Source: a virus
Strand: one strand, 5' to 3'
Virus record (IMG/VR): IMGVR_UViG_3300009514_000021
Coordinates: 3,278-67,277 of that record
DNA length: 64,000 nt
The position numbers and the translations under genes are program-made. The notes under the pieces were generated by a model. The model made no database searches. It was not told the origin of the DNA and saw nothing but the letters and a program-made list of their open reading frames with translations. Shown one piece after another: positions 2 to 61,677 of this stretch (position 1 is the stretch's first letter; every line of letters begins with the position of its first letter).

Positions 2-742
2 CAGACCAAGGGTGGGTGGGTCGAGCAGCACTGGGGAGAGGGCGTCCGGAACCTCACCTTCGACGCAGCCACAGGTGGTTTCAAGCGCCTGTACTCCGGT
101 CTGTCGAACATCACCGGTGGCGGCTACGACGCTGGCGGCACCCGCCGCCAGACCATCGCCTACGACAAGTACCTCAACCTGCTCGCGATGTTCCTCAACA
201 ACGGCGCCATCCGCGGAGACACCGGTCAGATCGCTTTCCAGGGTATGATCAAGGTGACCTTCGACGGCGGGGTGTACTTCGGGTGGTTCGGGAGCTTCAA
301 CGTCGAGGAAGGCGCCGACAACCCCTACCAGTTCACCCTGTCGACCGACTTCACCATCTCCCACGAGATCCTTCGCCTCCGATCTGGCCCGCTTACCGAG
401 GGGGACTTCATCGACCCGCGGTCACCCGAGCTGAGGGCGCGCCAGGCCGAGCAGGCTGCCCTTGCCAAAGACGCTGAGCCCGCGGGCTCCGCCACAGCGG
501 AGAGGCGCGCTGGGGCCACGAAACCGACGATGCGGTTCTCCCAATCGGAGCAGTCGTCCAACGTCCAGCCGCCCAAGACGCCGGCGGCGACCTCACCACC
601 GACGAGCAGTCCGAGTGGCACGGTGACACCCAAGGCCCCACCAGGCACTCGAGCGTTCCTGGAGGGCCTCTCGGCCTTCGGTCCGGATGTTCTGGAGCCA
701 ATCGACATCGAGAGCTTCCGTGGCTCGTCTGTTCCCCCGTAG
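2..742 (+). CDS. Partial (5'-truncated) tail tube initiator / baseplate hub-associated protein, paralogue of 752..2146
   Basis: The frame of ORF 188..742 is open back to base 2 (QTKGGWVEQHWGEGVRNLTF...RRQTIAYDKYLNLLAMFLNNG...YFGWFGSF). It aligns by eye with TRFGYVFQAWGEE...RRDSAAWQNTMALFHFYKNNG...YFGHFESF of the next gene. Pro/Thr-rich tail; sits just upstream of hub and spike genes. Confidence 0.6.
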   Translation, partial: QTKGGWVEQHWGEGVRNLTFDAATGGFKRLYSGLSNITGGGYDAGGTRRQTIAYDKYLNLLAMFLNNGAIRGDTGQIAFQGMIKVTFDGGVYFGWFGSFNVEEGADNPYQFTLSTDFTISHEILRLRSGPLTEGDFIDPRSPELRARQAEQAALAKDAEPAGSATAERRAGATKPTMRFSQSEQSSNVQPPKTPAATSPPTSSPSGTVTPKAPPGTRAFLEGLSAFGPDVLEPIDIESFRGSSVPP

Positions 743-751
743 GAGGTCTGA

Positions 752-2146
752 ATGACAATCAGCATCCCCGAAGGTGGGCGCGCCCGCGCTGGCAACCCTG
801 GCGCTGCGGAAGCCAACGACCTGTCCTTGCAGGTCAGCAGGTTCATCGCAAAGCCGGCCTCGGCGGCCGCGTACAGCCAGTCGGCCGTCGGCCCAGAGAC
901 GACTGTCGAGATCGAACCCTCCCAGCACCCGGGTGTCGACGGGTCCAACAAACTCCTGCGCTCGCTGTCGCCGTTCGTCATCCGTCTCGAGCCGCCCTTG
1001 GTGTACGCCTCACACCCTGCGGCCCTGGATAAGGCCAAGACCAACGTCAATCCCGGCATCTACGACTCGGCGGCCAAGTCCGCGGGACGGGATGGGTTCT
1101 TCAGCGCTCGAGCTGCTCTGGGCAACACGGAGTTCGCGACAGCCAACTTCAACGGCCGCACCCCCGAGGAGTTCGTGGCCTCCAGCTCGGGCCGACGCTT
1201 CACCCGGGACTCCCCGGGCGCGTCCCGGGACAACGAGGGAGCCTCGTCCGGCAACTTCGGCAAGCCGACCATCGCCGACCTGTACCAGGCGATCGACATC
1301 GCGACCCAGCTCAACACCATCCTGAAAACCCCGCCCCTGGTACTGCTCATCAACCCGCAGACGCTGTCGATGAGCCGGGTGAAGATTCAGCAGTTCCAGG
1401 AGCGGACGCGGTTTGGTTACGTGTTCCAGGCCTGGGGTGAGGAGCAGCCCAAACTCAGCATCCAGGTCCGGTGCGGCGCCTTCTACTCTGCCGGGCGTGG
1501 CCTCCAGTTCGCCAGCCGTCGGGACTCAGCTGCCTGGCAGAACACGATGGCGCTGTTCCACTTCTACAAGAACAACGGTTACTTGTACGACACCATAGGC
1601 AAGTCCAACGCGCACCACTTCGTCGGTGCGATCTCCATCCACTACGACGGTTGGTCGTATTTCGGACACTTCGAGTCGTTCACCTTCGGCCTCGACGACA
1701 CCAACGTCCACGGCGGCGTCAACTTCGACATGGAGTTCACGGTGTCTCGGATGGTCGACCACGACGAGCCCGTGGCCCCCGATGGCGAACTGGGTGTGGT
1801 CCGTCCTCTCAACTCGCCCATCCCGAACCCCAACGACCCCCGGTTCCGCGGGCCGAGTTCCCGGGCGGTGAACCCGGCCGGCGAGTTCCGTGTCGGCATC
1901 CAGGAAAGCAGCGTGGTCCTGTTCGAACAAGGCAACGTGGTCGCAGGAGGCGCGGAGGCGTCCCGTATACGCTCTCCAGACCCGGAGGTGAGCCCACCAC
2001 CGCCCCCGATCTTCCAAGGCAGTACAGGGGCGCCAGAGCTGCCCGTGGGAGGCTCTGGGTTCCGCACACCCGACGAACCTGTCGCCGATCCCCAGGCAGC
2101 TGCCGCCGCCGCGGCGACTCCACCACCCTCACCTTTCGGAGTGTGA
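752..2146 (+). CDS. Putative tail tube initiator / baseplate tube-cap protein (gpU / gp48-gp54-like fold), 464 aa
   Basis: AGGAGG at 741-746 precedes the ATG. Core LLINPQTLS...QAWGEE...YFGHFESFTF...VNFDMEFTV resembles tube-fold initiator proteins. Position before the hub fits. Confidence 0.6.
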   Translation: MTISIPEGGRARAGNPGAAEANDLSLQVSRFIAKPASAAAYSQSAVGPETTVEIEPSQHPGVDGSNKLLRSLSPFVIRLEPPLVYASHPAALDKAKTNVNPGIYDSAAKSAGRDGFFSARAALGNTEFATANFNGRTPEEFVASSSGRRFTRDSPGASRDNEGASSGNFGKPTIADLYQAIDIATQLNTILKTPPLVLLINPQTLSMSRVKIQQFQERTRFGYVFQAWGEEQPKLSIQVRCGAFYSAGRGLQFASRRDSAAWQNTMALFHFYKNNGYLYDTIGKSNAHHFVGAISIHYDGWSYFGHFESFTFGLDDTNVHGGVNFDMEFTVSRMVDHDEPVAPDGELGVVRPLNSPIPNPNDPRFRGPSSRAVNPAGEFRVGIQESSVVLFEQGNVVAGGAEASRIRSPDPEVSPPPPPIFQGSTGAPELPVGGSGFRTPDEPVADPQAAAAAAATPPPSPFGV

Positions 2147-2147
2147 C

Positions 2148-5100
2148 TTGGGTCTAGAGCACCGGCCATTCATCGGAACGTTCCAGCTCAACAAGACGCA
2201 GCTGGTGCAGCATACGCCGGACGGCCTCGTCTACGTGAACGGGGACACTTCGCTTCCGGGATGCCCAAAGTGCAACGGCCGGATCGACATCCAGAAGTTC
2301 ATCACGGAAATCAGTGTCGACACCGGCGTCACGGCTGGCGAGGCCTCGGCCTCGATGAGCATCTCCATCCCGCTTCACCACGTTGATTCGTTCGCGCGCG
2401 ACGCCCAGTACATCCTTCGGCCGGGGCTCGAGGTCCACGTCTATCTCCGTGGCTACTTCCCGGTCAACGGTATGTACGGCAACCTCGCGGAGTCCCGGGA
2501 CAGGCAGGTGACCGAGCGGATCGACTCGGAAGCCCTGGTCAGCGAGTTCGACCGCCTCAAGATCGAAAACCCCGCCAAGAGCAACCGGGCCTACAAGAGG
2601 CAGCTCGACGCGCTGTTCAAGGAAAACAAAAGGGATCTGCGGAATCGGTTCACGACCCGACGAATGCTCGCCATCGTTCAAGCGGCCGCGGACTATTACA
2701 AAATCCCGCCGGAGTGGATCTACGGGACCATGCTGCTGGAGGCCAGCGCCGACAACGGGCGCACCTCCATCCCGGTAGGTACCTCGCCCATCTCGAAGTT
2801 CCCGGGCGACACGGGAATAGGCGTTCTCCAGACCATTCGCTCGCGGCACCGCACCAACACCAATCGTTACAACAGGTACGCCCGAAAGCACGGGTTCCCG
2901 AGCGTCTGGTGGGAGCATTCCCAGCTGGCTGACCCTCGGTTGGCCATCTGGTCCAAAGCCGGTGATTTCGCGGTGCTTCAGTCGCGCCGGAAGAACCGCC
3001 TCCTCTACGGGGAGATTGGTGCCTTACAGATGGGCCGCATCCAGTACGCCGATCCCAGCCGTCTAGGGGTTGAGGATGGCGGCAAGGTGAAAGGTCTGAC
3101 TGCGGCGCAGCGCGCTCGGAGGCGGAAAACCCTAAAGCGGGTCGATAGCCGCGCAGGGTTCATGGCGCGGGCGCGGAAGCTCTTCAGGAAGGACCGATCT
3201 GGAGATCTCGAGGAAGGCGACAACGAGTTCCCCTCCGATCCGGCGCTGGCTCAGGACGACTTTGGGTTGCCCGAGGCTCCCCCGACAGCCCCTGACGTCC
3301 GTCTGGAGGACTTCGGGCTCGGGGAGTCAGGCCTTGAAGATGTCATGGCCTACCCGTACTACCACGTCTTCCACGGGGTGATGACCCAGGTCGACCACAG
3401 CTGGAGCGGCGGGTTCTTCAGCATCAGCGTGTCGGTCGCCTCGATGCTGCACTTCTGGCAGTACCACACGATGAGCACGAACGCGTCCCTGTTCGGCGCG
3501 CGAGCGGTCAACTCGGGGCTCAGGACCTCCCTGGTGGGCCACAACTTCACCGGGATGCACCCGTACGAGATTATCTACACGCTCCATCACGACATGGTCG
3601 GTGCCGCAGGCGGTGTGGGCGGCTACCTCAGTCAGAAAACCAACCAGACGGCCAAGACCGAGGTCCTGGGGGAGAGCCTGTTCTCCCTGAACGTCCGCTA
3701 CTGGAAACGACGGTTCCAGACCCGCATGACCAAGCTCCGAATGCACGGGGCCACAGGAGAGCTGTTCAGCACGGTCCAGGCCGCGTTCCTGGGGCGCACC
3801 GGGAGCAGCAAGCTCACCCGCCTGGTCAGGCAACGGTTCGCCGACCCCAGCGCCTCGAAGAACCTCAACAAGAAGATACTCCGTACGGCCCAGTTCATCG
3901 GCCTGTTCAAGAGGGAGCGCCTCTGCGCCCTACAGAAGCGCGGGGACGCCAGAGAGGCTACAGGACAGGAAGGCGCGACTCTCGACTCCTTGGTCCAGTC
4001 GATCAGGTCGAGGCCGGCACGCAGTGGCCGCCCACGGTTCGAAATCAACATCGTGGCGATGCAGGCTTTCGTGGCCAACATCGGCAACTTCGGCCAGGTG
4101 AACCTGTTCGAGTCGACCTACGAGTCCAAGCTCGACATCGCGCTAAAGGTCTGTGAGGTCACGGGATTCGAGTTTTACCAGGATGTCGACGGCGACTTCG
4201 TGTTCAAGCCGCCGATGTACAACCTCGACACCAGCTCGAGCCGCGTCTACCGCATCGAGGACATCGACATCATCTCGATCAGCTTCTCCGAAAAGGAGCC
4301 CGAGGTGACGTACATGACCGTCAAGAACGGTCACTTCAAGAACATGATCACCGGCGGCACCGAAAACGAGTGGGGCCACCGAGGTCAGTACATCGACTAT
4401 CGCCTGGTGGCCCAGTTCGGGTGGCGTCCTGGCAGCTACGAGACCAGCTATTTCAACGACCCCAAGAGCCTGTTCTTCTCTGCGGTCAACCGGATGGACG
4501 TCCTCAACGCCCCGGTCAACTCGGCCAACGTGGTCATCCCCCTGCGGCCAGAGCTGAGGCCTGGGTACCCCGTCTACATCCGGTACCTCGATTGCTTCTA
4601 TTACCTGCCGACTTTCTCGCACCAGTACAACGCCGGCGGGTCGTGCACGACGACGCTCCAGCTCACCGGGAAGCGGGCCAAGTTCTACGCGCCCGGTGAC
4701 CCGTCCAAGAACGGCATCGAGGCCATCGACCTGGCCAGTACCTTGCTCCCGCGACGTCCGTTGGAGGTCCTCGACGAGCTGGGGCGCCCTCGCCTGTCGG
4801 GTTTCCCCAACGTGGTCATGGCGCTCGACCCCACACGGGTCAACCCGCTGTTCTACATCGTGGGCTCCGATCTCGACAAAATCGACGACCCGCAAGTGCT
4901 CAACTCCATCGTTCAGCAGGCCGCCGACTTCGGCATCCTCAACCCGGTGGAGTTCAAAGGTAAAAAGGCCGTCGTCTACTCTTTCACCGCCACTGCGGGC
5001 ACCACCCCGGAGGGGCAGCCCAAGAAGGTCGAGTACCGTTTCTGGTTCGACCGTGTCGACATCGGGTCCGAGCCCATCGAAGCCGTCATGGCGCGTAACC

Positions 5101-7355
5101 GAGGGAACACCAAGACCAAGGGTGTCGGGATCGACCTGCGCAAGGCTTCCAAGCAGTACGCGAAAAGGGTCGCCAAGCTGTCAAAGACGTTCGCCGAGAA
5201 ACGGGCGGAGGCCAAAGAGGCGCAGGCGGAAATCAACACCGGGTTCTCGACTATTCGAGGCCTCAACGAGGCGGAGACCCCGACAGGCAAAGACGCGGCG
5301 ACCGCGATCAAGGAGGCCAAGAAGCAGAGAGAGGAGGCCAACAAATCGATCACGGCGGCGCGTAACAAGCAGCGCGCGCTGGAGAAACGGTTGGCCGGGG
5401 CCCAGCGAGACATCGACCGGAAGATTCGGGAGGGCAACCCCGGCATCGCCATCCTCCTGGAGCTGATCGAGGAGGTGGGGGAGCACTTCCGGAAGAAGCA
5501 CCCGGAGATCACCGACATCCAGAGCACCGCCAACCTGCTGGACATGCTCGCGGACAAGAAGGCCTCGTTCAGCAATGGTCAGCAGCCGGGAGCGTATCGC
5601 TATTACTCGGCTTCCCACCCCGACCCAGACCAGCAGGGACAGCCTCTCATCAACTATTTCAAGGCCCAGAGCACGGACCCCCAGGCGAAGAAGGGCAGCA
5701 AGTTCGTACGCACGACCAAGCCCTCTCTGGACGCAAGGTGGCGGGGGATCCGGGTGCCAGGGTACCTGCCGTCGCGGCAGGTGTCGTCGACAGATCCCAG
5801 CTCCATTCCCCCGGAAGCTCAGTTCGGCGAGGTCGAGGTCATCAATGGGATCCGGGTAGCGGTATCGAACCCGGGGACCCCTGACGGTGAGGTGCGCCCG
5901 ACCAGCGAGATCCGCGAGCTGATGTTCTCAGTCCAGACCTCCGACTTCCGCAAGAAGCGGACCTCGGTGCAAGACAAGGCCCAGATCGTCGGGCTCGATC
6001 AAGGTACTTTCGAGGCTCTCGCCCGGTTCTTCGTGGTCAGCGTCGGCTCGGATGTCGGGGATGAAACCCCTTCGGCGCTATACGAGGGTCCTCGATGGGA
6101 CAAGCTCAACGCCGCCATCACAGAGGCCAAGAAGGCTGCGGACGCCAAAGCTGGTGACACAACGCCGAAGTTCACCCTCCCGAAGTTCCCCAGTGTCATC
6201 GCCGTGAAAAAGGACAAGGTACGGAGTTCACGAAAGATTTCGACCATCAAGTCGAAGACTCCAGGCATCACCGCGCAGGCGATGGCGACAGCCATCGGGG
6301 CGGCAGTGTCTCGGGTGTACGGTAACCTGCTCGCCCGGTCGCTGAAGAGCTGGTACGACCGGATGAAAGCCAAGGCTGCGTTCATCGAGAAGTCCCGGGA
6401 CATTCTCCACACGTTTCTCACGACCTTCGGCGCGGAAGTGGGTGTCCCGCTTTCGGCTTTGTCAGGGGAGCGGACGACCAGGCAGACCCGACGGAAGGTC
6501 AAGTTCTACAGTCCCGTGTTCCCGGTATCCGACGCCCGGGGGTACGAGGTCATCGGCTCCTACCGCTACGGCCGCGACGTGGACATCGAGCCCGACGGAG
6601 TGTTCGACGTCCTGCTCAAGCAGGACCCCTTTACGGTGCTCGACAGTTACACGGCCGATCAGCTCGTGGACAACATCGTTTCGGGTCGAGGCGTGTCCAA
6701 CAAGGTAGAGGTCAAGAAGATCACCAAGAAGGGCAACGTCATCACGGACGAAGTCTCAGCCGTCAATCCCACGGCCCGGGCGGAGAGCGAGAAAAGGGTC
6801 TTGGGGATGCTCAAGCGGAACTTCACCGACGAGCAAATCATCAACCTCAAGGACGGAGGGCTGGTCCGCAACACCTCCGATCCCAACCAGCTCGAGTTCG
6901 GGCTCCGCAACTGGTTCGCCGAGGACTCCAAAGAGGGGGTTCACAAGCTCCCCATCAACAACGCGGCCTTCGCCTTGTCCGACCTCCAGCACCACACCCT
7001 GAAACGGGTGTGCGACTGCAAGGCGGCCGAGGCGGACCTGATTCTGGAAGCCTTCGGTCAGCAGGAGTTCGTCCAGTTCTCCACCCCGCGCAACCGTGAA
7101 CTGGGGAGCGAGAACGACAAGGCGACGCAATGGTTGGGAGCGGTCACGGCCCGCGCAGGGGTATCGTGGCAGAGGAACGAGGAGGCGCTTCGGGGTCAGG
7201 TCCTCGACCGCGCGGGCAGCGCTCTGGTGGAGTCGTTCAGCGACCCCATCGAGAAGTTCGGGTTCAGTCAGGTCGCGCGCCGCCAAGACCAGGCCCTCGA
7301 ACGTGTCGACCGGACCACACAACGCCTGGACGAGATCCTGGACGACGAGGAGTAG
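2148..7355 (+). CDS. Baseplate hub protein (T4 gp27 / Mu gp44-like) with inserted lytic transglycosylase-like domain, 1735 aa
   Basis: TTG start. Hub-type motifs VFHGVMTQV, GFEFYQDVDGDFVFKPPMYN, QFGWRP, LRPELRPGYPVY, TTTLQLT. SLT-like stretch AAADYYKIPPEWIYGTMLLEAS...GIGVLQ. Lys/Arg-rich coiled coil near 5130-5430. Directly precedes a gp5-like spike. Confidence 0.7.
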   Translation: MGLEHRPFIGTFQLNKTQLVQHTPDGLVYVNGDTSLPGCPKCNGRIDIQKFITEISVDTGVTAGEASASMSISIPLHHVDSFARDAQYILRPGLEVHVYLRGYFPVNGMYGNLAESRDRQVTERIDSEALVSEFDRLKIENPAKSNRAYKRQLDALFKENKRDLRNRFTTRRMLAIVQAAADYYKIPPEWIYGTMLLEASADNGRTSIPVGTSPISKFPGDTGIGVLQTIRSRHRTNTNRYNRYARKHGFPSVWWEHSQLADPRLAIWSKAGDFAVLQSRRKNRLLYGEIGALQMGRIQYADPSRLGVEDGGKVKGLTAAQRARRRKTLKRVDSRAGFMARARKLFRKDRSGDLEEGDNEFPSDPALAQDDFGLPEAPPTAPDVRLEDFGLGESGLEDVMAYPYYHVFHGVMTQVDHSWSGGFFSISVSVASMLHFWQYHTMSTNASLFGARAVNSGLRTSLVGHNFTGMHPYEIIYTLHHDMVGAAGGVGGYLSQKTNQTAKTEVLGESLFSLNVRYWKRRFQTRMTKLRMHGATGELFSTVQAAFLGRTGSSKLTRLVRQRFADPSASKNLNKKILRTAQFIGLFKRERLCALQKRGDAREATGQEGATLDSLVQSIRSRPARSGRPRFEINIVAMQAFVANIGNFGQVNLFESTYESKLDIALKVCEVTGFEFYQDVDGDFVFKPPMYNLDTSSSRVYRIEDIDIISISFSEKEPEVTYMTVKNGHFKNMITGGTENEWGHRGQYIDYRLVAQFGWRPGSYETSYFNDPKSLFFSAVNRMDVLNAPVNSANVVIPLRPELRPGYPVYIRYLDCFYYLPTFSHQYNAGGSCTTTLQLTGKRAKFYAPGDPSKNGIEAIDLASTLLPRRPLEVLDELGRPRLSGFPNVVMALDPTRVNPLFYIVGSDLDKIDDPQVLNSIVQQAADFGILNPVEFKGKKAVVYSFTATAGTTPEGQPKKVEYRFWFDRVDIGSEPIEAVMARNRGNTKTKGVGIDLRKASKQYAKRVAKLSKTFAEKRAEAKEAQAEINTGFSTIRGLNEAETPTGKDAATAIKEAKKQREEANKSITAARNKQRALEKRLAGAQRDIDRKIREGNPGIAILLELIEEVGEHFRKKHPEITDIQSTANLLDMLADKKASFSNGQQPGAYRYYSASHPDPDQQGQPLINYFKAQSTDPQAKKGSKFVRTTKPSLDARWRGIRVPGYLPSRQVSSTDPSSIPPEAQFGEVEVINGIRVAVSNPGTPDGEVRPTSEIRELMFSVQTSDFRKKRTSVQDKAQIVGLDQGTFEALARFFVVSVGSDVGDETPSALYEGPRWDKLNAAITEAKKAADAKAGDTTPKFTLPKFPSVIAVKKDKVRSSRKISTIKSKTPGITAQAMATAIGAAVSRVYGNLLARSLKSWYDRMKAKAAFIEKSRDILHTFLTTFGAEVGVPLSALSGERTTRQTRRKVKFYSPVFPVSDARGYEVIGSYRYGRDVDIEPDGVFDVLLKQDPFTVLDSYTADQLVDNIVSGRGVSNKVEVKKITKKGNVITDEVSAVNPTARAESEKRVLGMLKRNFTDEQIINLKDGGLVRNTSDPNQLEFGLRNWFAEDSKEGVHKLPINNAAFALSDLQHHTLKRVCDCKAAEADLILEAFGQQEFVQFSTPRNRELGSENDKATQWLGAVTARAGVSWQRNEEALRGQVLDRAGSALVESFSDPIEKFGFSQVARRQDQALERVDRTTQRLDEILDDEE

Positions 7356-9779: not shown

Positions 9780-10376
9780 GTGGCTTTGACCACGGCGACC
9801 ATACAGGCCCAGCTGGAGCTGAGTAAGCTCGTTGGACCTTTCGCGTTCAACGGGGTGACGTTCCCCTCGTTAGCTCTGGCGATCTCCCAGGCTGTCTCCC
9901 TCTGGGGCGCCAACCAGCCCAACAACCTGGCCCTGACGGGGGCCTCGTCAGGTACCGCAGGGGCTGGCCCGGTTCAGGGACTCAGCCTCACAGTGGCACC
10001 CAACAGCACCTTGATCGAATCATCGCTGCGGTCTAACGGTGTGTCGGGCCAGTTGGTTCCGAGCTTGGCTTTGACGGTAGCCAACGGCATCGCGACCGCG
10101 TTCAGCCTCTCGGCTTTGTACTCGGGGACTTCCGCGGGTGTCGGGGTGGGCTCGGACGTGTCCGTCATCACCATCTCGAACCCGGGCACGTTGGTCACCG
10201 AGCTGATTACCCAGCTCAGGGCGATTGTAGGCAGCGGCAAGGCCGTCGAGTCTCTATGCCTTGGATTGGGCTTGGGTATCGCCTCCATGCTCCTGGGATC
10301 CGCTGGGTTCGGTACTGTTACGGGTTCCCCGAGTCCTATCAGCAGCGTCGGTACGACCTTCTCGGTGGTGATCTGA
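9780..10376 (+). CDS. Gly/Ser/Ala-rich protein with three internal repeats, candidate spike tip, 198 aa
   Basis: GTG start abutting the spike stop codon. Repeats GVTFPSLALAISQAV / GQLVPSLALTVANGI / GKAVESLCLGLGLGI at residues 25, 90 and 153; only 9 charged residues. Function inferred from position. Confidence 0.55.
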   Translation: MALTTATIQAQLELSKLVGPFAFNGVTFPSLALAISQAVSLWGANQPNNLALTGASSGTAGAGPVQGLSLTVAPNSTLIESSLRSNGVSGQLVPSLALTVANGIATAFSLSALYSGTSAGVGVGSDVSVITISNPGTLVTELITQLRAIVGSGKAVESLCLGLGLGIASMLLGSAGFGTVTGSPSPISSVGTTFSVVI

Positions 10377-21818: not shown

Positions 21819-22051
21819 TGACAACGCGAACCCCTGAAGACCTTCTGAAGGCCCTCAAAGCCATGGGCATCGACCCCGGCGATTGGGTCGAGGCCGGCGG
21901 CAAGGTGATGGAGCCACCGTTCATTCAGCGGCAGAAGGGGCACCTGTTGAAGTTCAAGGAGATCCTCGAACAGCAGGTGGCCGACGACCAGGAGGCTCTC
22001 GCCAAGCTCCACCAGAAGAAGAGCCGACTCCTTCACGGCGGAGGTAGCTGA
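21818..22051 (+). CDS. Small coiled-coil hypothetical protein, 77 aa
   Basis: TGATG overlaps on both sides, AGGAG upstream, helical C-terminal half. Confidence 0.7.
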   Translation: MTTRTPEDLLKALKAMGIDPGDWVEAGGKVMEPPFIQRQKGHLLKFKEILEQQVADDQEALAKLHQKKSRLLHGGGS

Positions 22052-34361: not shown

Positions 34362-34374
34362 ACCAGGAGTAACG

Positions 34375-40273: not shown

Positions 40274-40309
40274 GCTGGGCTAACCGCACACGGACTTGGT
40301 GAGGCTTGA

Positions 40310-47409: not shown

Positions 47410-47412
47410 CCC

Positions 47413-47443
47413 GGTGGGGGGGCTATAGCCTCGGTAGGTTAAG
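47413..47443 (+). promoter_or_regulatory. Conserved intergenic motif copy 4
   Basis: GGTgggggggCTATagcctcggtaggttAAG running into the AAGGAG RBS; contains palindrome GGCTATAGCC. Confidence 0.5.
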
Positions 47444-47451
47444 GAGAGCGC

Positions 47452-53784: not shown

Positions 53785-53787
53785 TAG

Positions 53788-54597
53788 ATGCGCATTCTGG
53801 TCGACCTGGGCAGCCACATCACTGGGGATCCGCAGATCACCCAGGTCGAGCGCGTGCCGCCTATCGGGGTCGAAGGCCAGACAGCCATCAACGGCAAGTA
53901 CCTGATCCCCGTCACCCCCGGCGCCAATGTCAAGGTGGACACCTCCTCGTACGTCCTTGACGGAGGCGGGGAGATCGACGGGGGCGACGTCGCCAGCCAG
54001 TCCTACGCCTGGCTTCTGGCCATGTTTCCGCAGTTCGAGAACATCTACTTCAATCCGTTGCTGACTGAGGACCACGTCCTCGAGCTGGACTTCACGCAGG
54101 GCTGGAACACTTTCCCCACACGGGCTCAAACAGGCCGGGAGACGGGCGCACCTTCAGGGTTCGTCGAAGGGCAAGCGCCCAACATGACCGCCATCTTGCC
54201 GGTCAACGACTCGATGACACCTTCGCGACCAGGGGTCTTGGTCACCGACCTGATCGACATCGGGCCGTTCACCCTCGATGCCGGGGGCGACCCGGTCGGG
54301 ACCGACGAGTTCCTCATCTACTGGAAACTCTACGACTTTACCACCACGCACGACGTCTACGCTGAGGACGGCGCGCTGGTCGGGTCGAATACCCCGGCTA
54401 TCAAATACGCATTGGAGGTGGACCAAGAGCCTGCGGATTTCGAGGTCTACTTCTCACCCGACGACGGGGTCCATTGGATCCAGGTAGGACTGCTCGAACC
54501 TGTGGCTTTCTGCGAAAAGACAACGAGTTTCCGGCTCGCTTTCGTGAACCACTCGTCCACGAAGGTCTACTTGGCCACCTTTGGCGTCCTGTTCTGA
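53788..54597 (+). CDS. Hypothetical virion-associated protein, 269 aa
   Basis: Follows TAG-TAG in frame; GGAG upstream; beta-rich C-terminus VYFSPDDGVHW...FRLAF. Confidence 0.7.
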   Translation: MRILVDLGSHITGDPQITQVERVPPIGVEGQTAINGKYLIPVTPGANVKVDTSSYVLDGGGEIDGGDVASQSYAWLLAMFPQFENIYFNPLLTEDHVLELDFTQGWNTFPTRAQTGRETGAPSGFVEGQAPNMTAILPVNDSMTPSRPGVLVTDLIDIGPFTLDAGGDPVGTDEFLIYWKLYDFTTTHDVYAEDGALVGSNTPAIKYALEVDQEPADFEVYFSPDDGVHWIQVGLLEPVAFCEKTTSFRLAFVNHSSTKVYLATFGVLF

Positions 54598-54608
54598 GAG
54601 GCTGATTC

Positions 54609-57600
54609 ATGGCTGAAGACTTCGGACCCAATGTTTCCCGCACACTCGACGCCCAGTGGCGTCAGTTCGGTGGCATCATCTGGCAGAAGCAGCGTCCGCC
54701 GCTCGACGCCGAGGCCAACCTCCGGGACCAGGTCAACACCGAGAAGAATCGGCTCGCCTCCAAGGTCATGATGCCCTCGGGGTTCGTCCTCGACCCCACC
54801 CGCGCTCAGGCTGACTACCAGTTCGACAAAAACTGGTCGAACTTCTTCGTGCTGGCCAACCCCCGCGTCGACGACGCCGTTTGGACCTACGAGAAGGACC
54901 CGGCCATGTGGGCCGTGGTCAACGGCTGGGTCCTGCCGATCATCGGCACCAACATCACCAGCGACGACGACACCCGCAACATCATCAAGCTCTTCCCGTC
55001 ACCGGAGTCCGACAGTCGGGTGGACTTCATCTTCCTGGAGGTCTGGCAGGCGCTGATCAACCCGAACCCCTCGGAGGTCAACAAGCCGACGGCCGACACG
55101 CTCTACAAGTACGGTAACGTCAAGTACACCGGCACGCAGCTGGTCGACGACCTCGAGGACCCCGCAAAGGGCTACGAGACCGCCAAGCGCACCCAAGTCC
55201 AGTACCGCATCCGGGTCTTCGGTGAGGGCTCGGGCCTGGGATCGGGCGTCGCCCTGGATGTGTACCCGGACGGCCTCGACGACCCCAACGTGTTCGGCCA
55301 GGGGACCTCGACGACGCCCCTGACGGGCGGCGGTGCGGTCATGAACTTCGCCAACATGCGCGAAGAGATGGGGGATCCCTCTCTGTGGCGCGCCGGCGAC
55401 GGAGACCCCGACAACGACCTCGGCACCATCGACGGCTACAGCTACGCCATCCCCATCTGCGCGGTCTTCCGCCGCAACTCCAACGTGTTCGTCGCGGTCG
55501 AGAGCGCGGGCAACGCCAACCAGAACGGTGCGTTCAGCCGCAACCCGGGCGCAGGGGTCCTGCCTAACCCCTTGGACGGTGCCAAGACCCTTCTGACGGC
55601 CACCCTGACGGACTTCCTCCCGTACGACGGGACGGGAACCATCGACATCACGAACATGAACGGGTCGGGCCTCGAGGACACCGCCTTGGTGCTCGACAGC
55701 ACCTTCCTGGTCATCGAGAACGAAATCATCGGCATCTCGGCTGTCGACGCAATCAACGAGACCATCACGATCAGCTCCCGAGGCCGCTACGGCACCGACG
55801 CGGTGGGCCATGCTGAGGGATGCGAGGTCCTGTTCTTCAACAGCCGACCCGACAACCTCTTCGCCGACGAGGTCGCCCAGGCCGATGTGTTGGACCTGCG
55901 CCGCGGCATCAACCCCGGCGACTGGGACTTCAAGCGCATCCTGCTCCACAACGTCGGCGCGCTCGTCAAAGGCGACCTACGCACTGCTTGGAAGCAGTCG
56001 AGCCCAGGCGACACCGAGGGACCGGTCGTCACCGAGGTCGACTACCTCCTGTCCGATGGTGGCACAGCGGTGCCGAACCAGACGGAAGCGCTTGACGGCG
56101 CCGACGGGATCCGCACCGTCTGGTCGGACGCGTCGGTGTACCACCCCGACGTGACCCTGCTGCTCGACAACGAGACCGCGGTCGACTCCGACAACATCAC
56201 GACCGTGCCCCTGGACAGCGGCGCCGAGTGGGACGTCGGCGCCGATTTCAAGCCGGGAGCTTTCTTCAACACGGGCCCGGGCAACCCTGCCGAATCATGG
56301 ACCAACGGTTCCATGGTGTTCCTGCACATCGGTGGTGATGACGGATCGGGGGGTGCCCGGACCACTTTCCGCGACGGCGGGGAGCGTGCTGTCCGTTTCG
56401 TGACGCCCAAGGAGTATTGGAAGGCGGGGTTCCCCCAGATCGACCCGGCAGGCGGCAACCAGTACCCGGTGACGCTCCGGTTCCTCGACCAGCGCTCCCA
56501 TGAGCCGGTGGAGCCCATCGTGACTCCGGCGACGCTTGATGCCGAGCTGCCCAAACACCCGGGCCCGATGTACCCGTGGCGCGAGCTGAACTTCGAGTCG
56601 CCGTTCATCGTCCTGGGCGGCCTTCTCCGCTCGGACCTCAAGACCAGCATCGCCGCGACGGACCTGAGCAGCGCGATCCCGTTCGTCATCATCGACACCG
56701 GCATCGACTTCGACTTGGCTGGGAGCTTCTACACCAAGGACGCCAACGGCGAGTTCGTCAACGACCCCACTGTGGTCTCCTCGCCTCTGCTGCGTGGCCA
56801 GCGGACCCTCTACGACATGCTCACCGACGGTGGCCGGGACCGCACGGGCAACTCCTCCGAGGTCTACGTCATCCTGTACGGTGACGCCGACTCTTCGGAG
56901 AACAACGGCTGTTTCCGGGTCGTCGCCGCAGGTACCACCGGGTACACCTATACCAACGCGCCCGACGCGACCTCGATCATCACCGTCCCGCTGTCGGCCG
57001 ACGCGACCAGCATCGTGAGCCCAGGCACCGGCAACACTCTGACGCTCGAGTTCCGCTCCCAGTTCACCAACGCCGAAGACGGCACGGGCGCCTCGGCGTC
57101 CGACCCTGCCATGGTGGTCGTCCTGACCGACATCGGTGGCGAGGACGCGAGCATCCCCTGGGCCCGCGTAACTCTGGATACCCTCGGCATTCCCACTTCC
57201 GGGGTCGGCGAGGACAAGGTCGCGGTCGCCAGTAAAATGGTTCTGTCCACAGCCCTGCTGTACCACCCAGGGCGTGGCGGGACGGCCCGTGTGGCCGATC
57301 AGATTACCCGGGTGGCGCTGCGTCAGGCGGCTACCAGCACGTACCTGCGCCAGGCTCCTGGTGCCCTGGACACGGACTTCCCGGCGTTCTCGGGTATGCC
57401 GGCCGACGAGATCTTCTTCGACCCCTCGCACGTGCAGACCTGGAACCGCCTCGAGAGCCTGGGATGGCACGCTCCTGACGCTCCGGGGTACGGCGGCAAG
57501 GTCATCGGGTTCACCGAGCAGGATCGCGAGTCGGAGCTGTTTGTCGACAAGGGCTCCAAGACCGTCATCTTCCGTCCCCTGCGGGACAGGCAGATGACGC

Positions 57601-60600
57601 TCCAGGGTCAGACCACGATCGCAGACCCGAGCCTCATCGGCGAGCTGGAGTATCCGAGCACGGTCGCCAAGGACAGCCTGGCTCTGTGGACCGGAGGTGC
57701 CGGCGCCGGCAAGCTGATGGGCTTCCCGGTGCCTCGGGAGTACATGCCTCGGTTCGGTCGTCAGGACATCCCCTTCTATCCTGTCGCCGATGCCTCGGGG
57801 ACCTTCCTGTTCGGCATCAACCACCTGTTCCTCGACAGCACTGACGGAACGCGTCCGGTCTTCAGCGTCGTTGGCGGCGAAAGCAACACGATCGGCGGAG
57901 GCGTCAACGTCAGGCCTCTGTTCTTCATGACCGACGACGCAGCCGGCACAGTGGACTACGGCGAGAGCACGACCATCGTGTCGCCGTCCGGGACGGTTCC
58001 GGCCTACGTCGCACGGAAGAGCACCAACATCGCCGGCACGTTTGCTGCCCAGGCGGACGACATCATCGCACGTCTCAACGCGGTCCAGAGTTCCGACCTG
58101 GGCGCCGGCCTCAAAGGCATCATGCTGCCGCCGTATCACGGCGTCGCACGCGTCTATGGCGTCTATGACAAGCGCGACTACGACGCCAAGGGTGGTCGGA
58201 CGTTCAAGGCCGACCGTGTGACCCCCGAAGACGACCCGGCCACCAACCTGCTCCGGCAGGATGTGGACAAGCAGTCGCTGTTCATCTTCCAAGGCGGAGC
58301 AGCGGACTTCACCGACAACGTCGACGACCACACCTACATCATTCCGCTCGACGCGATCGACTTCACCAAGGCCCCCGACTGGGTCGACACCGAGGTTTTC
58401 GAAGACTTCGAGTTCATCGTGGAGATGGTCGGGTTCGGGTTCGCCCAGGGCTTCATCAACAAGAACAACTTCGTCTTGGTCCGTCGCGTCGACGGCGAAG
58501 GCGTGGAGCAGACCTCCGGGTCGGATCCTGAGCTGGAAGGGATCCACATGATTCTCCCCGCACCTGCGGGCGTCTCAGACGGCCTCTACACGGCTTACAA
58601 CCGCACGGTCTACCAGGGTGACCCCTTCATGACCCGCGCGGGAGAAACGCGTACGGTGACCGATTACGAGCACCGCTACGGTCAGATCCCGACGGCCTCG
58701 GCCCACGAGGTCGGCACCCCCATCCAGCAGTTCGACATCAACACGGTGCTGGATGAAGACTGCAACATCATCAGCAACATCGGCGGCATCGCTGTCGAGG
58801 CACCCAACGGCCGGGCCTTCCAGGTCCTCGCCGCGCTGGACTTCTACACGACCCTGGGCACCGGCAACATCGGCGGCCGTTCCTTCCCTGGAACGCCCCT
58901 GGATGTCGGGTTCACCGAGAACACCCCCGAGGGCTCGACCCGCATACCGGACGGCCCAACAGACCCCGCCTGGCGTGTCCTTACCCGGACGTTCAGCGAG
59001 GGCCAGAAGACCAGCGACAGTAGGGCTATGGCGGTCCTCGAGATCGTCGACAACGACCTCCTGAACCCAGCGTCCCTCGACCACGCGATCGTGCGCCTGG
59101 GCTTGCTCGACGGCACAGTTCTCGACCTGTTCGCCTCGACTGCGGCGAACGAGTCAGTGCTGACCACTGCGGGGGCCAGCACTGACGACATCTTCACCGT
59201 CGACGTGGACTCGGCCGCGGTCTCCAAGACCGAAACGATCGCCGACGGGTCACTGCTGTTCCCGACACCATTCACAGCAGGTGGCGCGGACCAGACCCAG
59301 ACAGCGGCTATCGCCTCTGGCATCATCGCCGATGCTGAGGTGGGCGATGCCCTTAGCGTCGTTCCGTCCGCCGACATCAGCAACACCTACGGGTCGTTGT
59401 CGTTCCACGCCTGGATGTCAGGTGCGGGCGTCGCCACCGTGGTCGGCACCTACACGTTGAGCCCGCACGCTTTCGAGGACCTGGTCCCAGCTGGAGGCAC
59501 CAATGTCCTGACGATCGCAGGAGCGCTGCCAGGTATCCTCCCGGCTCACGGTGGCGCGGGTGTCATCAACATCGCGTTCCCAGGGACAGCCTTGGGAGAC
59601 GTCATCTTGGTCGGTCAGACGGGTGGTGCCGCGCCGTGGCCCAGTGTCTCGGTGACTGGGCGGGTGTCTGCGGCCGGGTTCGTCGACTTCACTTTCACGA
59701 ACCAGCTCGGTGTAGCCAACGACCAATCGGTCGGACCCGGGGTCGATTTCACAGCTGTCGCGCTCCGAGACGGCACGCTGCCCGACCTCTCCGTGCCGGC
59801 TGTCCCCTTCGTTGTCTCGACGCACACGACGAGGTCCGACCCAGAGGTCACGGCGCAGAACCTGGTCACCCTCATCAACGGTCACGACCGGCTCAAGCGC
59901 TCGGTCACAGCGTACAGCCCGGCGACGACACAGGTTGTCCTCGAGGCGGTGCCCACTGGCGAAGAGGGCAACAATCTCTCGCTGTCCATACGTCACAGAG
60001 AGATTGACCCCGGAGCGCCCCTGAGCGAGGTCGGACCTTCTGGCACGGCGATCGAAACCGCGCTGCGGATCCGGGTGCCGACCAACAACGACACCGCCTT
60101 CGTGGGGACGCACCCGAGTTTCGGGGCGCACAACATCACGTTCACCCAGTTCCGTGGCGGGGTGAACAGCGCCGTCAACGCGGGCAACGGGACCACCCAG
60201 CTCCGCCTGACAGGTATGACCGAGCGTCTCCCCTTGGGGATCCTTCTCCAGGATTCCGACTTCCTGGGGGAGAATCCCCTCGGGGACGACGCCACGGCTC
60301 TGAAGACGAGCCCTGCCGGTATCCGACCCGTACAGACCCTTCTCCCGCTGACCAGCGGCGGGGAAGAGTTCACGAGGTTCCTGGGTGAGCCTGGGGCCCT
60401 GGTTGCGATGGCCGACGGCAAGATCCTCGGGTACGTGGCCTTCACCGACGCCACCCCGACGGGCTCGAGACGGTTCCGTCTCTACCGGGGTGGTGGCTCC
60501 GCGTTCGTCCTCAGCGGCATCAACCCCGGTGGTCCTATCGACTGGGTCTCCGAGAGCTTCCCCGAGACGCTGGATCCGGTGCTCAAGGGTGGGGTGCTGG

Positions 60601-60899
60601 CGTGCAAGGCCCTCTTGGTCCGCAACTTCCCCGAGGCGCCGTTCTCGACGCCTGTCGTGGTCTCGGAGGGTGACGAGATTCAGATGATCGTCATCACCCA
60701 TGGGCTGTTCGGCAACGGCCGGACCCAGGAGGAGGGCATCACGCTCAGCGGCATCATCTCGCCGACAGGGTACGGGGAGGGCTACGCGGCTTCGGATCGG
60801 TACCGCTGCACGGGCCGGCCGATGTACCGTGCGTTCACCAGGTCGGTACCTGACGTGGACAAGGTGACCCTGGCCGTGTTCTCCGGCGAGGAGGACTGA
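54609..60899 (+). CDS. Large tail fibre/baseplate protein with DUF6519-like N-terminus, 2096 aa (paralogue of 40310..43822)
   Basis: VSRTLD...WQKQRPPLDAEAN, DFIFLEVW, ETAKRTQVQYRIR, IDGYSYAIPICAVFRRN, RPDNLFAD...DVLDLRR. GAGG upstream. Confidence 0.7.
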   Translation: MAEDFGPNVSRTLDAQWRQFGGIIWQKQRPPLDAEANLRDQVNTEKNRLASKVMMPSGFVLDPTRAQADYQFDKNWSNFFVLANPRVDDAVWTYEKDPAMWAVVNGWVLPIIGTNITSDDDTRNIIKLFPSPESDSRVDFIFLEVWQALINPNPSEVNKPTADTLYKYGNVKYTGTQLVDDLEDPAKGYETAKRTQVQYRIRVFGEGSGLGSGVALDVYPDGLDDPNVFGQGTSTTPLTGGGAVMNFANMREEMGDPSLWRAGDGDPDNDLGTIDGYSYAIPICAVFRRNSNVFVAVESAGNANQNGAFSRNPGAGVLPNPLDGAKTLLTATLTDFLPYDGTGTIDITNMNGSGLEDTALVLDSTFLVIENEIIGISAVDAINETITISSRGRYGTDAVGHAEGCEVLFFNSRPDNLFADEVAQADVLDLRRGINPGDWDFKRILLHNVGALVKGDLRTAWKQSSPGDTEGPVVTEVDYLLSDGGTAVPNQTEALDGADGIRTVWSDASVYHPDVTLLLDNETAVDSDNITTVPLDSGAEWDVGADFKPGAFFNTGPGNPAESWTNGSMVFLHIGGDDGSGGARTTFRDGGERAVRFVTPKEYWKAGFPQIDPAGGNQYPVTLRFLDQRSHEPVEPIVTPATLDAELPKHPGPMYPWRELNFESPFIVLGGLLRSDLKTSIAATDLSSAIPFVIIDTGIDFDLAGSFYTKDANGEFVNDPTVVSSPLLRGQRTLYDMLTDGGRDRTGNSSEVYVILYGDADSSENNGCFRVVAAGTTGYTYTNAPDATSIITVPLSADATSIVSPGTGNTLTLEFRSQFTNAEDGTGASASDPAMVVVLTDIGGEDASIPWARVTLDTLGIPTSGVGEDKVAVASKMVLSTALLYHPGRGGTARVADQITRVALRQAATSTYLRQAPGALDTDFPAFSGMPADEIFFDPSHVQTWNRLESLGWHAPDAPGYGGKVIGFTEQDRESELFVDKGSKTVIFRPLRDRQMTLQGQTTIADPSLIGELEYPSTVAKDSLALWTGGAGAGKLMGFPVPREYMPRFGRQDIPFYPVADASGTFLFGINHLFLDSTDGTRPVFSVVGGESNTIGGGVNVRPLFFMTDDAAGTVDYGESTTIVSPSGTVPAYVARKSTNIAGTFAAQADDIIARLNAVQSSDLGAGLKGIMLPPYHGVARVYGVYDKRDYDAKGGRTFKADRVTPEDDPATNLLRQDVDKQSLFIFQGGAADFTDNVDDHTYIIPLDAIDFTKAPDWVDTEVFEDFEFIVEMVGFGFAQGFINKNNFVLVRRVDGEGVEQTSGSDPELEGIHMILPAPAGVSDGLYTAYNRTVYQGDPFMTRAGETRTVTDYEHRYGQIPTASAHEVGTPIQQFDINTVLDEDCNIISNIGGIAVEAPNGRAFQVLAALDFYTTLGTGNIGGRSFPGTPLDVGFTENTPEGSTRIPDGPTDPAWRVLTRTFSEGQKTSDSRAMAVLEIVDNDLLNPASLDHAIVRLGLLDGTVLDLFASTAANESVLTTAGASTDDIFTVDVDSAAVSKTETIADGSLLFPTPFTAGGADQTQTAAIASGIIADAEVGDALSVVPSADISNTYGSLSFHAWMSGAGVATVVGTYTLSPHAFEDLVPAGGTNVLTIAGALPGILPAHGGAGVINIAFPGTALGDVILVGQTGGAAPWPSVSVTGRVSAAGFVDFTFTNQLGVANDQSVGPGVDFTAVALRDGTLPDLSVPAVPFVVSTHTTRSDPEVTAQNLVTLINGHDRLKRSVTAYSPATTQVVLEAVPTGEEGNNLSLSIRHREIDPGAPLSEVGPSGTAIETALRIRVPTNNDTAFVGTHPSFGAHNITFTQFRGGVNSAVNAGNGTTQLRLTGMTERLPLGILLQDSDFLGENPLGDDATALKTSPAGIRPVQTLLPLTSGGEEFTRFLGEPGALVAMADGKILGYVAFTDATPTGSRRFRLYRGGGSAFVLSGINPGGPIDWVSESFPETLDPVLKGGVLACKALLVRNFPEAPFSTPVVVSEGDEIQMIVITHGLFGNGRTQEEGITLSGIISPTGYGEGYAASDRYRCTGRPMYRAFTRSVPDVDKVTLAVFSGEED

Positions 60900-61108
60900 T
60901 GCCCTTCGTACGTCGGATTGAGGTCGACCCCAAGACCCTCAAGAAGTTCGAACGCCGCACCAAGGCCGAGCTTCGTCAAGCCCTGCACAACCCTGCTCTT
61001 ACGGCGGAGCAGAAGGAAGAGATCCGGCGACGGATCAAGCAGGTCAGCCGTCCGAAAGTCTACTCGAAAGATTCCCCGCCTCCAGCGGGGGCCATCGCGT
61101 TCGAGTAG
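60899..61108 (+). CDS. Small basic hypothetical protein, 69 aa
   Basis: TGATG coupling, GAGGAGG upstream, Lys/Arg-rich helices. Confidence 0.65.
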   Translation: MPFVRRIEVDPKTLKKFERRTKAELRQALHNPALTAEQKEEIRRRIKQVSRPKVYSKDSPPPAGAIAFE

Positions 61109-61128
61109 CCACTCCAAGGAGGTTTCCA

Positions 61129-61677
61129 ATGCGACGCATCGCATTCATTCTCTGCTGCTCGGTCTTTCTCGCTGCCCCTGCTCTCGCTGCCCCTGATGCT
61201 GGACCGACGGCCAAGGACGTCAAGGAGATGCCCGCGGCATCGCCGGCCCCGGCCGATGCTGGTCCGACGCCTGCGAAGGCCGAGCCTGCCAAGAAAGCCA
61301 CTGCGGAGGAAGCCAAGCCGGTCCCACCGCGTGCGCAGCCCGAGACCATGACCGAGGCCATCAAGGAGGTCGGCGCTCTGGTCGAGGCGGCGCGCAACGG
61401 CAACTGGGTGCTGTTCACCGGCATCTTGATCATGCTGCTCATCTACATCCTGGACAAGCTGGTCAAGCTCAAGGAACGGATCCCCGCCAAAGCCGTGCCC
61501 TGGGTGTCCGCGGCGCTCGGCATCGTCGGGTCGATCGCGGCGCAGCTCACGACAGGCATTCCCTGGGGTCAGGCCTTGCTCCAAGGGTTCACCGCTGGAC
61601 TTGCAGCGGTCGGGCTCTGGGAGCTGATCTTCAAGCACCTGGTGAAGAAGAAGCCCGACCCTGCCCCGGCCAGTTAG
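61129..61677 (+). CDS. Holin-like membrane protein with N-terminal signal peptide, 182 aa
   Basis: AAGGAGG RBS. Signal peptide MRRIAFILCCSVFLAAPALA, Pro/Ala linker, three hydrophobic segments, basic C-terminal tail KHLVKKKP. Last gene of the structural cluster. Confidence 0.55.
   Translation: MRRIAFILCCSVFLAAPALAAPDAGPTAKDVKEMPAASPAPADAGPTPAKAEPAKKATAEEAKPVPPRAQPETMTEAIKEVGALVEAARNGNWVLFTGILIMLLIYILDKLVKLKERIPAKAVPWVSAALGIVGSIAAQLTTGIPWGQALLQGFTAGLAAVGLWELIFKHLVKKKPDPAPAS

Follow-up and report, generated by a model that had tools for sequence, protein, structure and literature searches.

The 64,000-nucleotide stretch of viral DNA analyzed here (the window) covers bases 3278-67277 of a single 67,277-bp contig, the IMG/VR virus record IMGVR_UViG_3300009514_000021, and carries at positions 2-61677 a block of large genes on one strand. 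This block is very probably the distal-tail operon of an uncultivated contractile-tailed phage, which belongs to a large clade with complete or near-complete genomes of ~400-540 kb. As a contractile-tail baseplate the module is of a known kind, in a variant form whose gene order recurs in hundreds of related uncultured viruses. Its conserved J and gp25 cores sit within proteins that are three- to fourfold larger than usual, and they are accompanied by giant conserved proteins, which are real and unexplained and whose roles we infer below; one of these, of roughly 3,700 aa and lacking any known domain, is encoded between the spike and wedge genes. Huge phages are known almost only as sequences, and the construction of their tails is known only for phiKZ-like phages and phage G. 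Here, a 60-kb operon for baseplate and fibres is kept fixed across one very large uncultured clade. This operon provides concrete targets for virion proteomics, structure prediction and cryo-electron microscopy once a member has been cultured, and its fibres and tailspikes may be useful for predicting host range. The advance is incremental, as the enlargement of sheaths with genome size and the elaborate baseplates of jumbo phages are already known.

The gene block and its relatives

The plus strand carries 21 open reading frames (ORFs) at positions 2-61677, all in one direction and tightly packed. The initial annotation had described 22 co-oriented genes, nine of them encoding 1012-3813 amino acids (aa); the count has to be lowered by one, whereas the orientation, the packing and the nine large genes stand, as exactly 9 of the 21 genes encode at least 1012 aa (1735, 3813, 1012, 1181, 1739, 1170, 1195, 2110 and 2096 aa). 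Neighboring genes range from a 29-nt overlap to a 68-nt spacing, the sole exception being the 232 nt that follow the 3813-aa gene g06. Because the DNA is G+C-rich (61-67% along the whole window), the minus strand also contains long chance ORFs, for example one of 750 aa at 56295-58547. The plus-strand frames are nevertheless real, since homologues of g01-g19 were found by tblastn (25-70% aa identity) in contigs of relatives with a very different G+C content of 42-61%, as well as in the European Nucleotide Archive (ENA) phage LR745208 and in a 536-kb IMG/VR genome. Such support extends to 19 of the 21 genes of the block; the 69-aa ORF and the holin-like g20 had no tblastn match in the relatives' loci examined. 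Pfam and PHROGs were run on all 24 candidate ORFs of the window, and matches were restricted to J, gp25 (weak), a beta-helix, a holin, phrog_5417 and a weak pectinesterase. A tRNA scan of the window returned 0 genes. Before the window begins, the contig has another 3.2 kb, in which a K/E/A-rich ORF in the tape-measure position is represented by its 3' 1022 codons; the counterpart of this ORF in the same place of the 536-kb relative is 26% identical.

Within a large metagenomic clade the contig represents a new member, with at most ~50-57% identity to the others and one 80%-identical fragment. The 536-kb relative, G002, is an IMG/VR uncultivated virus genome of 536,053 bp rated 100% complete by CheckV, and it is collinear with the window over the tape-measure-like ORF, g01-g11 and g13-g19, the block genes being 34-66% identical at the amino acid level. 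In IMG/VR, 18 spike loci and 6 J loci were found on contigs of up to 402,383 and 536,053 bp, and these loci preserve the orders g01-g06 and g06-g13. The long contigs of relatives measure 222,939, 255,478, 402,383, 485,034 and 536,053 bp, and the 402-kb genome, G001, has direct terminal repeats. These relatives are phages. TerL_ATPase was matched at E<=0.01 in three of the five relatives searched (G002, G004 and LR745208), in ORFs of 639-696 aa, and exceeded its cut-off in two of the five once neighboring matches were added; weak HK97 capsid matches occur in G004 and LR745208, and in both genomes the capsid and terminase matches lie ~14 kb apart. Upstream of its tape-measure-like gene, G002 has a 1770-aa sheath-domain ORF (phrog_2839, 2.2e-30; L030:6402-11714, minus strand). 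Because only its last ~380 of 1770 residues match the sheath PHROG, the sheath also appears greatly enlarged in this clade.

In GenBank/ENA, the record closest to the window is LR745208.1, an uncultured phage of 485,034 bp, with homologues of 15 of the 19 genes (g01-g03, g06-g11, g13-g16, g18 and g19). In this genome the block is split in three: g01-g03 lie with g18-g19, g08-g16 form a second part, and g06-g07 are found on the opposite strand, converging on g16. No homologues of g04, g05, g12 and g17 were seen in 125 kb of LR745208 (L001, L003 and L004). Both the G002 and the LR745208 records are unannotated and uncharacterized, and their identity to the window is moderate. No paper on LR745208 was found in the literature, the genome tables in the supplement of PMC7162821 lying outside that search, and literature searches returned no published description of this baseplate module. 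The initial annotation had raised a possibly undescribed jumbo-phage lineage. Its jumbo size agrees with relatives of 402-536 kb; as to novelty, the lineage is uncultured, with no close relative in culture, yet it is represented by many metagenomic sequences (984 hub clusters, 90 g06 clusters and the 485-kb ENA genome) and is thus not unseen.

In the arrangement that we propose, a tape-measure-like protein encoded just upstream of the window would be followed by two paralogous adaptors, g01 and g02, and then by a 1735-aa hub, g03, with a tail-lysozyme insertion in some relatives. The hub would be followed by the 807-aa spike g04, whose foot would be OB-like and whose needle would be a beta-helix, together with the small uncharged g05. 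The wedge would be built around the gp25-like g09 and the J/gp6-like g10, with their neighbors g08 and g11, and the clade-specific 3813-aa g06 and its partner g07 would most likely add a further structural layer to the baseplate. Genes g12-g19 would supply peripheral, fibre and tailspike proteins for host binding, among them a pair of paralogous fibres and one or two proteins with a beta-helix, and a holin-like gene would close the block. The parts would be large because clade-specific domains have been added to conserved cores. The genes of the block, all on the plus strand, are as follows.

g01, 2-742, +: 5' end open in the window; open frame of 324 codons, starting at about contig position 3045
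g02, 752-2146, +: 464 aa, g01 paralogue, second protein in the adaptor position
g03, 2148-7355, +: 1735 aa, putative baseplate hub
g04, 7356-9779, +: 807 aa, putative central spike
g05, 9780-10376, +: 198 aa, almost uncharged, S/L/G/A-rich
g06, 10377-21818, +: 3813 aa, ~415 kDa, clade-specific giant protein
g07, 22051-25089, +: 1012 aa, constant partner of g06
g08, 25089-25979, +: 296 aa, conserved, directly 5' of the gp25-like gene
g09, 26025-27203, +: 392 aa, with a gp25-like sheath-initiator domain
g10, 27203-30748, +: 1181 aa, predicted baseplate J / gp6-like wedge subunit with extra domains
g11, 30745-32142, +: 465 aa, in the gpI position after J
g12, 32211-34361, +: 716 aa, variable, tailspike-like
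g13, 34333-39552, +: 1739 aa, conserved large peripheral / fibre-block protein
g14, 39614-40273, +: 219 aa, small conserved virion-type protein 5' of fibre gene g15
g15, 40310-43822, +: 1170 aa, fibre-type
g16, 43822-47409, +: 1195 aa, G/A/P/D-rich, conserved fibre-block protein
g17, 47452-53784, +: 2110 aa, tailspike-like, C-terminal right-handed beta-helix
g18, 53788-54597, +: 269 aa, small conserved protein 5' of fibre gene g19
g19, 54609-60899, +: 2096 aa, second fibre-type protein
small ORF, 60899-61108, +: 69 aa
g20, 61129-61677, +: 182 aa, holin-like, last plus-strand gene of the block

Wedge, hub and spike genes

By its sequence, g10 is securely predicted to be a baseplate J / gp6-like wedge subunit. 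It matches Pfam Baseplate_J (PF04865) at 2.4e-22, with 79.9 bits vs a cut-off of 21.1, and in PHROGs it matches phrog_6 (4.8e-25) and phrog_1608 (2.4e-7). The J homologue of LR745208 is 39.5% identical to it over 98% of its length, and g10 also matches gp241 of Tunturi_5 and gp188 of phage G.

Directly upstream, g09 contains a gp25-like domain at residues ~230-300, behind an N-terminal extension of 230 aa. Its Pfam match is to Sheath_initiator PF10934 at 1.1e-3 (19.4 bits, below the cut-off of 32.9), the same family being seen in five of six members of the g09 family, with 2.3e-4 as the best value, and phrog_975, a baseplate protein, is matched at 5e-4. When the g09 family profile was compared with the PDB, the nine best matches were all gp25, sheath-initiator or tail-lysozyme-like chains (E 0.016-1.3), among them T4 gp25 at 0.046. 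Singly weak and together concordant, these matches support the prediction that g09 is a gp25-like sheath initiator. An invariant CxxC pair occurs just before this domain, at residues ~228-231, in all six aligned members, and one member of the family has a weak zinc-ribbon match (0.055); the pair may be a metal site in the extension of the sheath initiator. The remaining wedge neighbors are conserved proteins. Gene g08 is found in LR745208, in the IMG/VR loci and in the 536-kb genome, with no family match in Pfam or PHROGs, and the g11 family is conserved at 31-53% identity, its profile having no relevant match in the PDB.

Three parts of g03 are conserved, the N-terminus (residues 1-117), the core (392-960) and the C-terminal part; a variable insertion (~117-390) separates the first two, and a coiled-coil-like stretch (~990-1135) follows the core. 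With Atlas features of residues 386-960, all ten of the best named matches fall in the Mu gp44/gpP hub clan at 0.95-0.96, and the five best-ranked rows share 144-152 of 256 features. Together with gene order, this makes g03 a likely baseplate hub. The core profile matched 984 clusters (50% identity) at E<=1e-3, 409 of them at E<=1e-30, which argues for a very large and diverse clade; among the 150 matches listed, the proteins measure 568-2152 aa and all belong to the close family (E<1e-160), with no bridge to a named hub family. None of the 16 family members matched a hub family in Pfam, the profile found only coiled coils in the PDB, and hhalign of the family against P2 gpD gave a probability <0.1; the hhalign targets were the single sequences of P2 gpD and gpV, and a single-sequence target is insensitive. 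The stretch at window positions 2496-3317 (residues ~117-390) is an optional insertion; 7 of 18 relatives lack it and have proteins of ~1370-1465 aa. Two of the 16 family members match Phage_lysozyme2 in Pfam (best E 1e-4). As the insertion of the window's own g03, searched alone, matched nothing relevant in Pfam or the PDB, a lysozyme or transglycosylase is not demonstrated for this protein.

The next gene, g04, encodes a putative central spike, with an N-terminal OB-like beta-barrel and a C-terminal beta-helix, directly after the hub position. It matches DUF2345, the VgrG C-terminus, at E 0.05 (two of 15 family members, best 0.007), and the sole notable PDB match of the family profile is VgrG 6sjl at E 0.13; hhalign of the family against P2 gpV gave no signal. 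In its low-confidence AlphaFold2 (AF2) model from 15 sequences, strands are placed at residues 33-112 and a strand ladder at 655-769, and five of the weak Foldseek rows, at E 0.05-0.12, are entries for phage baseplate or puncturing proteins. It is followed by g05, which always lies between the spike gene and g06 (37-44% identity in 13 loci) and is possibly a spike-tip or cap protein; only 9 of its 198 residues are charged, its internal repeat signal is weak (z 2.2-2.5 between neighboring thirds), and no family match was found in Pfam or PHROGs. At the other end of the series, g01 lies directly 3' of the tape-measure-like ORF, a position that suggests a tube initiator or tube-to-hub adaptor. 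Genes g01 and g02 are paralogues (BLAST, 30% over 124 aa, E 6e-10), and g01 is 51-70% identical in relatives. There was no Pfam or PHROG match for g01, and no PDB match for the g02 profile built from 16 members.

As regards the assignments made by the initial annotation, a distal contractile-tail module is upheld by the J match and the gp25-like domain, both of which pass profile searches, the gp25-like call being consistent though weak across Pfam, phrog_975 and the PDB. The hub call gained the Atlas lead and gene order and found no HMM (hidden Markov model) or hhalign support, and the spike call gathered several weak matches (DUF2345, VgrG and Foldseek), none of them at E<=1e-3. A gpI assignment for g11 has nothing beyond its position. 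The enlargement of the core parts, by 2.6-4.5 times relative to the P2 counterparts, and their interleaving with giant proteins of no known family in Pfam or PHROGs both proved correct.

The giant proteins g06 and g07 and alternative readings

The g06 family comprises 90 clusters, mostly of 3400-3950 aa and with 32-48% identity over 100% of the length, and none of them has a Pfam domain or an informative name. Contigs that carry the family reach 517,846 bp. Shorter matches are limited to three, two of them fragment-like and one a remote relative of 1999 aa, and among 50,697 phage records the family was found only in LR745208. Conservation is high at residues 1-2300 and 3350-3813 and lowest at ~2500-3150, and BLAST detected no internal repeats. 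The first 1200 residues, modeled with AF2 from 30 sequences, have a confident, mainly beta fold (predicted local distance difference test, pLDDT, 78.8; predicted template modeling score, pTM, 0.72), with residues 30-800 mostly above 85 pLDDT. Foldseek of this model against the PDB returned 0 matches at E<=1e-3. In VIA-align, whose rows cover well only residues 658-771 and 949-1035 and barely sample the other domains, residues 658-771 resemble the XM1 baseplate-complex chain 7kh1_A6 (Z 8.2 over 103 residues, root-mean-square deviation 3.1), FliD D2-D3 and sheath or baseplate-entry chains (Z 5.8-6.9), and residues 949-1035 resemble beta-barrel domains of tailspikes, Dit and tail-tip proteins (Z 7.0-7.6). 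At such Z values, these likenesses of the model may reflect only common domain types. Against BFVD, 30 matches at E<=1e-3 were obtained, the top ones being J-like, gp7-like ('wedge initiator') and sheath proteins of uncultured myoviruses and cyanophages; because most of their TM-scores are 0.05-0.08, the likeness is one of domain vocabulary, not of architecture. For residues 2300-3813, the best Atlas score was an uninformative 0.79.

The partner gene, g07, has 48 clusters in addition to that of the window, and none of them contains a Pfam domain. Its N- and C-termini are hydrophobic and helix-prone, and a profile of 38 members found nothing relevant in the PDB. It adjoins g06 even in LR745208, where the pair sits on the other strand. 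In 12 of 13 IMG/VR spike loci that reach past g05, g06 comes directly after the spike gene and g05, and it lies directly 5' of g07, g08 and the gp25-like gene in loci that extend that far. Position, length conservation, a compact confident fold and tail-type domains together make clade-specific structural parts of the baseplate the most likely identity of g06 and g07. A more specific proposal, tentative and in our opinion rather doubtful, is that the g06 family of ~3,400-3,950 aa and g07 form a new outer baseplate layer of a few giant chains, the fixed length of which sets the baseplate diameter. If true, this layer would do the job that phiKZ gives to hundreds of copies of small subunits, and contractile tails would have a means, not described before, of forming their host-contact platform and setting its size, common to hundreds of uncultured huge phages.

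Several observations weigh against reading the block as the baseplate operon of a huge phage. Of the genes sought in the flanks, the tape-measure-like ORF is present upstream and has no PHROG match, and capsid, terminase and sheath genes are not on the 67,277-bp contig; this is why the genome size and the contractile tail of this phage are deduced from its relatives. In the five relatives, Pfam Phage_sheath_1, Terminase_6N, Terminase_6C and Terminase_3 matched none, a search with the Tunturi_5 portal also matched none, and the two HK97 capsid scores are below the cut-off. Within the block, the hub identity of g03 has no HMM, PDB-profile or hhalign support, the g04 model is of low confidence (pLDDT 44) with 0 Foldseek matches at E<=1e-3, and 0 of 6 members of the g11 family matched Pfam at E<=0.5. 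In LR745208, the wedge genes and g06-g07 are separated and on different strands, so the linkage of the pair to the baseplate genes is not absolute. Finally, the proteins of the block are known from genes alone.

One alternative, raised in the initial annotation as a giant contractile injection system (CIS), would be an extracellular CIS or tailocin locus without a capsid, residing in a bacterium or mobile element. The window itself has only tail, baseplate, fibre and holin-like genes, and IMG/VR classes the relative G004 as a provirus, both of which would suit such a locus. The full block, however, is collinear with a 100%-complete virus genome of 536 kb and with a 402-kb genome bearing direct terminal repeats, TerL-like ORFs of 639-696 aa and HK97-like matches lie ~14 kb apart in two relatives, nuclease and homing-endonuclease genes occur near the tail genes of G002, and the record belongs to a virus collection. 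With relatives that are 402-536-kb virus genomes, we regard a CIS as extremely improbable. The provirus label of G004 could also speak for a phage of less than 200 kb, or a prophage with an acquired tail module, and it is true that only 67 kb are in hand and that many related contigs are short. Such an origin is very unlikely, given that every long-contig relative is large (222,939-536,053 bp), that g06-family contigs extend to 517,846 bp and that the module alone occupies 61 kb.

A different question is whether, within a phage tail operon, g06 and g07 could be a central or lateral fibre, a decoration of the tail surface or ejected proteins. Their role is fixed neither by a family match nor by a match to a global fold, LR745208 has the pair unlinked from its wedge genes, the domains matched in g06 (XM1, FliD D2-D3 and the beta-barrels of tailspikes and tail-tip proteins) are of the kind that decorates exposed tail proteins, and its least conserved residues, 2300-3300, would be in keeping with a host-contact region. 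We consider this option unlikely, albeit one to be taken seriously, in view of the place of g06 after the spike gene and g05 in 12 of 13 loci and before g07, g08 and the gp25-like gene, of a length tightly kept at ~3400-3950 aa in most of the 90 clusters, and of BFVD matches that are mostly J-like, gp7-like and sheath proteins; a pTM of 0.72 over 1200 residues also argues for a defined body and not a thin fibre.

Known systems, distal genes and flanks

The order hub, spike, gp25, J and next gene of P2, Mu and T4 (in P2, V-W-J-I and T-U-D) is like that of the window. The counterparts in P2, Mu and T4, respectively, are gpD, gp44 and gp27 for the hub, gpV, gp45 and gp5 for the spike, gpW, gp46 and gp25 for the sheath initiator, gpJ, gp47 and gp6 for J, and gpI, gp48 and gp7 for the gene after J, whose product is also TssG-like. 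The J and gp25 domains were detected, and homology is not demonstrated for the hub, spike or gpI. Compared with P2, the window has 1735 vs 387 aa (D), 807 vs 211 aa (V), 392 vs 115 aa (W), 1181 vs 302 aa (J) and 465 vs 176 aa (I), and, unlike P2, it places ~5,100 codons (g05-g08) between the spike and gp25.

No close synteny with a characterized phage was found. The only cultured relative with detectable homology, and a very distant one, is Tunturi_5, a Tunturiibacter phage (PP885688, 308,711 bp). It is a cultured Acidobacteriota myovirus, seen by electron microscopy with extended and contracted tails, and a singleton in the vConTACT2 gene-sharing network (PMC11924767). Its gene order resembles that of the window: tape measure, two proteins, a lysin-bearing tail protein, a spike-position protein and large structural proteins, then a gp25-position protein, a 1239-aa J and the next baseplate protein. 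Homologues were found for the g03 core (23%, E 4e-10), g10, g14 and the N-termini of g15 and g19. The first of these homologues, a tail protein with lysin activity according to its annotation, occupies the slot after the tape measure; this hub-position protein has 883 aa vs 1735 aa for g03. A search of the 50,697 phage records found no g06 homologue in Tunturi_5, and Pfam found no hub family in its proteins at matching positions, the only match being Gp5_C at 1.7e-3 in the spike-position protein.

Phage G (Bacillus/Lysinibacillus; 497,513 bp), the only cultured megaphage, has a J-like gp188 that weakly matches g10 (24.7% over 25% of the query). Its baseplate genes are of ordinary size (J of 619 aa), its tape measure has 2893 aa, and no match to the g03 core or g06 was found in it.

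For the proposed extra layers, the phiKZ baseplate is the best functional analogy. It has a center of tube initiator, spacer, hub, spike, spike tip and pin, an inner wedge layer with the sheath initiator, and an outer periphery of ~107 nm that forms a fibre platform (PMC13250141). The periphery is made of many copies of several moderate-sized proteins, whereas in the window the extra coding capacity lies in a few giant chains. No sequence match connects the window with phiKZ, and no phiKZ chain is among the rows listed for the g06 N-terminus, which still allows for a likeness. More generally, Al-Shayeb et al. reported huge-phage proteins as long as 7,694 aa, some of them tentatively taken as structural, and analyzed them no further (PMC7162821). 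In large phages, bigger genomes go with bigger sheaths that have more domains (PMC9230969), and the text at hand of a jumbo-phage review mentions baseplates a single time (PMC13282480).

The distal genes fit a host-recognition set of two fibres and one or two enzymatic tailspikes. The motif DGY is not enriched in them, with 4 occurrences in g12-g19 (in g12, g15, g16 and g19) vs ~2.4 expected, and with 0 in g01-g11 vs ~1.8 expected. The two fibre genes, g15 and g19, have a common N-terminal region of ~550 aa (three BLAST segments, E 8e-20, 1.5e-12 and 1.6e-7), which matches Tunturi_5 gp247, annotated as 'tail fiber protein', and g19 is 48-49% identical to its homologues in relatives. Each of these paralogues has a small conserved gene 5' of it, g14 and g18, respectively. 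Gene g14 matches phrog_5417 at 3.2e-20, is 58% identical in the 536-kb genome and 31% identical to Tunturi_5 gp222, annotated as 'virion structural protein', while g18 is 52% identical in the 536-kb genome. In g17, residues 1229-1391 match Pfam Beta_helix at 1.9e-12, and residues 18-1587 are 34% identical to the 536-kb genome. The corresponding values are 41% over residues 28-1720 for g13 and 38% over residues 1-1195 for g16, neither of which has a family match in Pfam or PHROGs.

Gene g12 may encode a further tailspike-like beta-helix protein, judging from a Pfam Pectinesterase match at 5.4e-3, below the cut-off. Among the genes of the block it alone differs between relatives in presence and size, being absent in the 536-kb genome, present as two tandem copies in locus L005 and represented by a 1135-aa homologue in loci L006-L008; exchangeable modules for receptor binding or depolymerase activity typically show such a pattern.

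The last gene, g20, is predicted to encode a small membrane protein and matches a holin family, with phrog_1129 (holin) at 1.9e-9, phrog_1299 at 1.1e-8 and Pfam Phage_holin_5_2 (PF16079) at 3.8e-4 (21.1 bits, short of its 29.2-bit cut-off). Its N-terminus is signal-like, its linker A/P-rich, and the segments at its C-terminal end are hydrophobic. An endolysin gene beside it was not found in the window by the Pfam and PHROG scans.

Beyond 61.7 kb the genes switch to the minus strand. Three plus-strand ORFs in this part (61716-62696, 62624-63484 and 63345-63977) look like chance frames opposite minus-strand genes and were set aside. The first gene of the divergent minus-strand block is a 155-aa ORF at 61740-62207, which matches phrog_20259 (unknown function) at 2.5e-40 and has a cysteine-rich C-terminal stretch of ~30 residues common to five other PHROGs. 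In G002, homing-endonuclease and HNH/endonuclease VII genes are found in locus L031 (G002:C1:110001-130000; phrog_3339 at 9e-29 and phrog_1035 at 5e-22), along with a nuclease matching phrog_13933 at 3e-49, and its nuclease and endonuclease genes lie at most 30 kb upstream of the tail genes.

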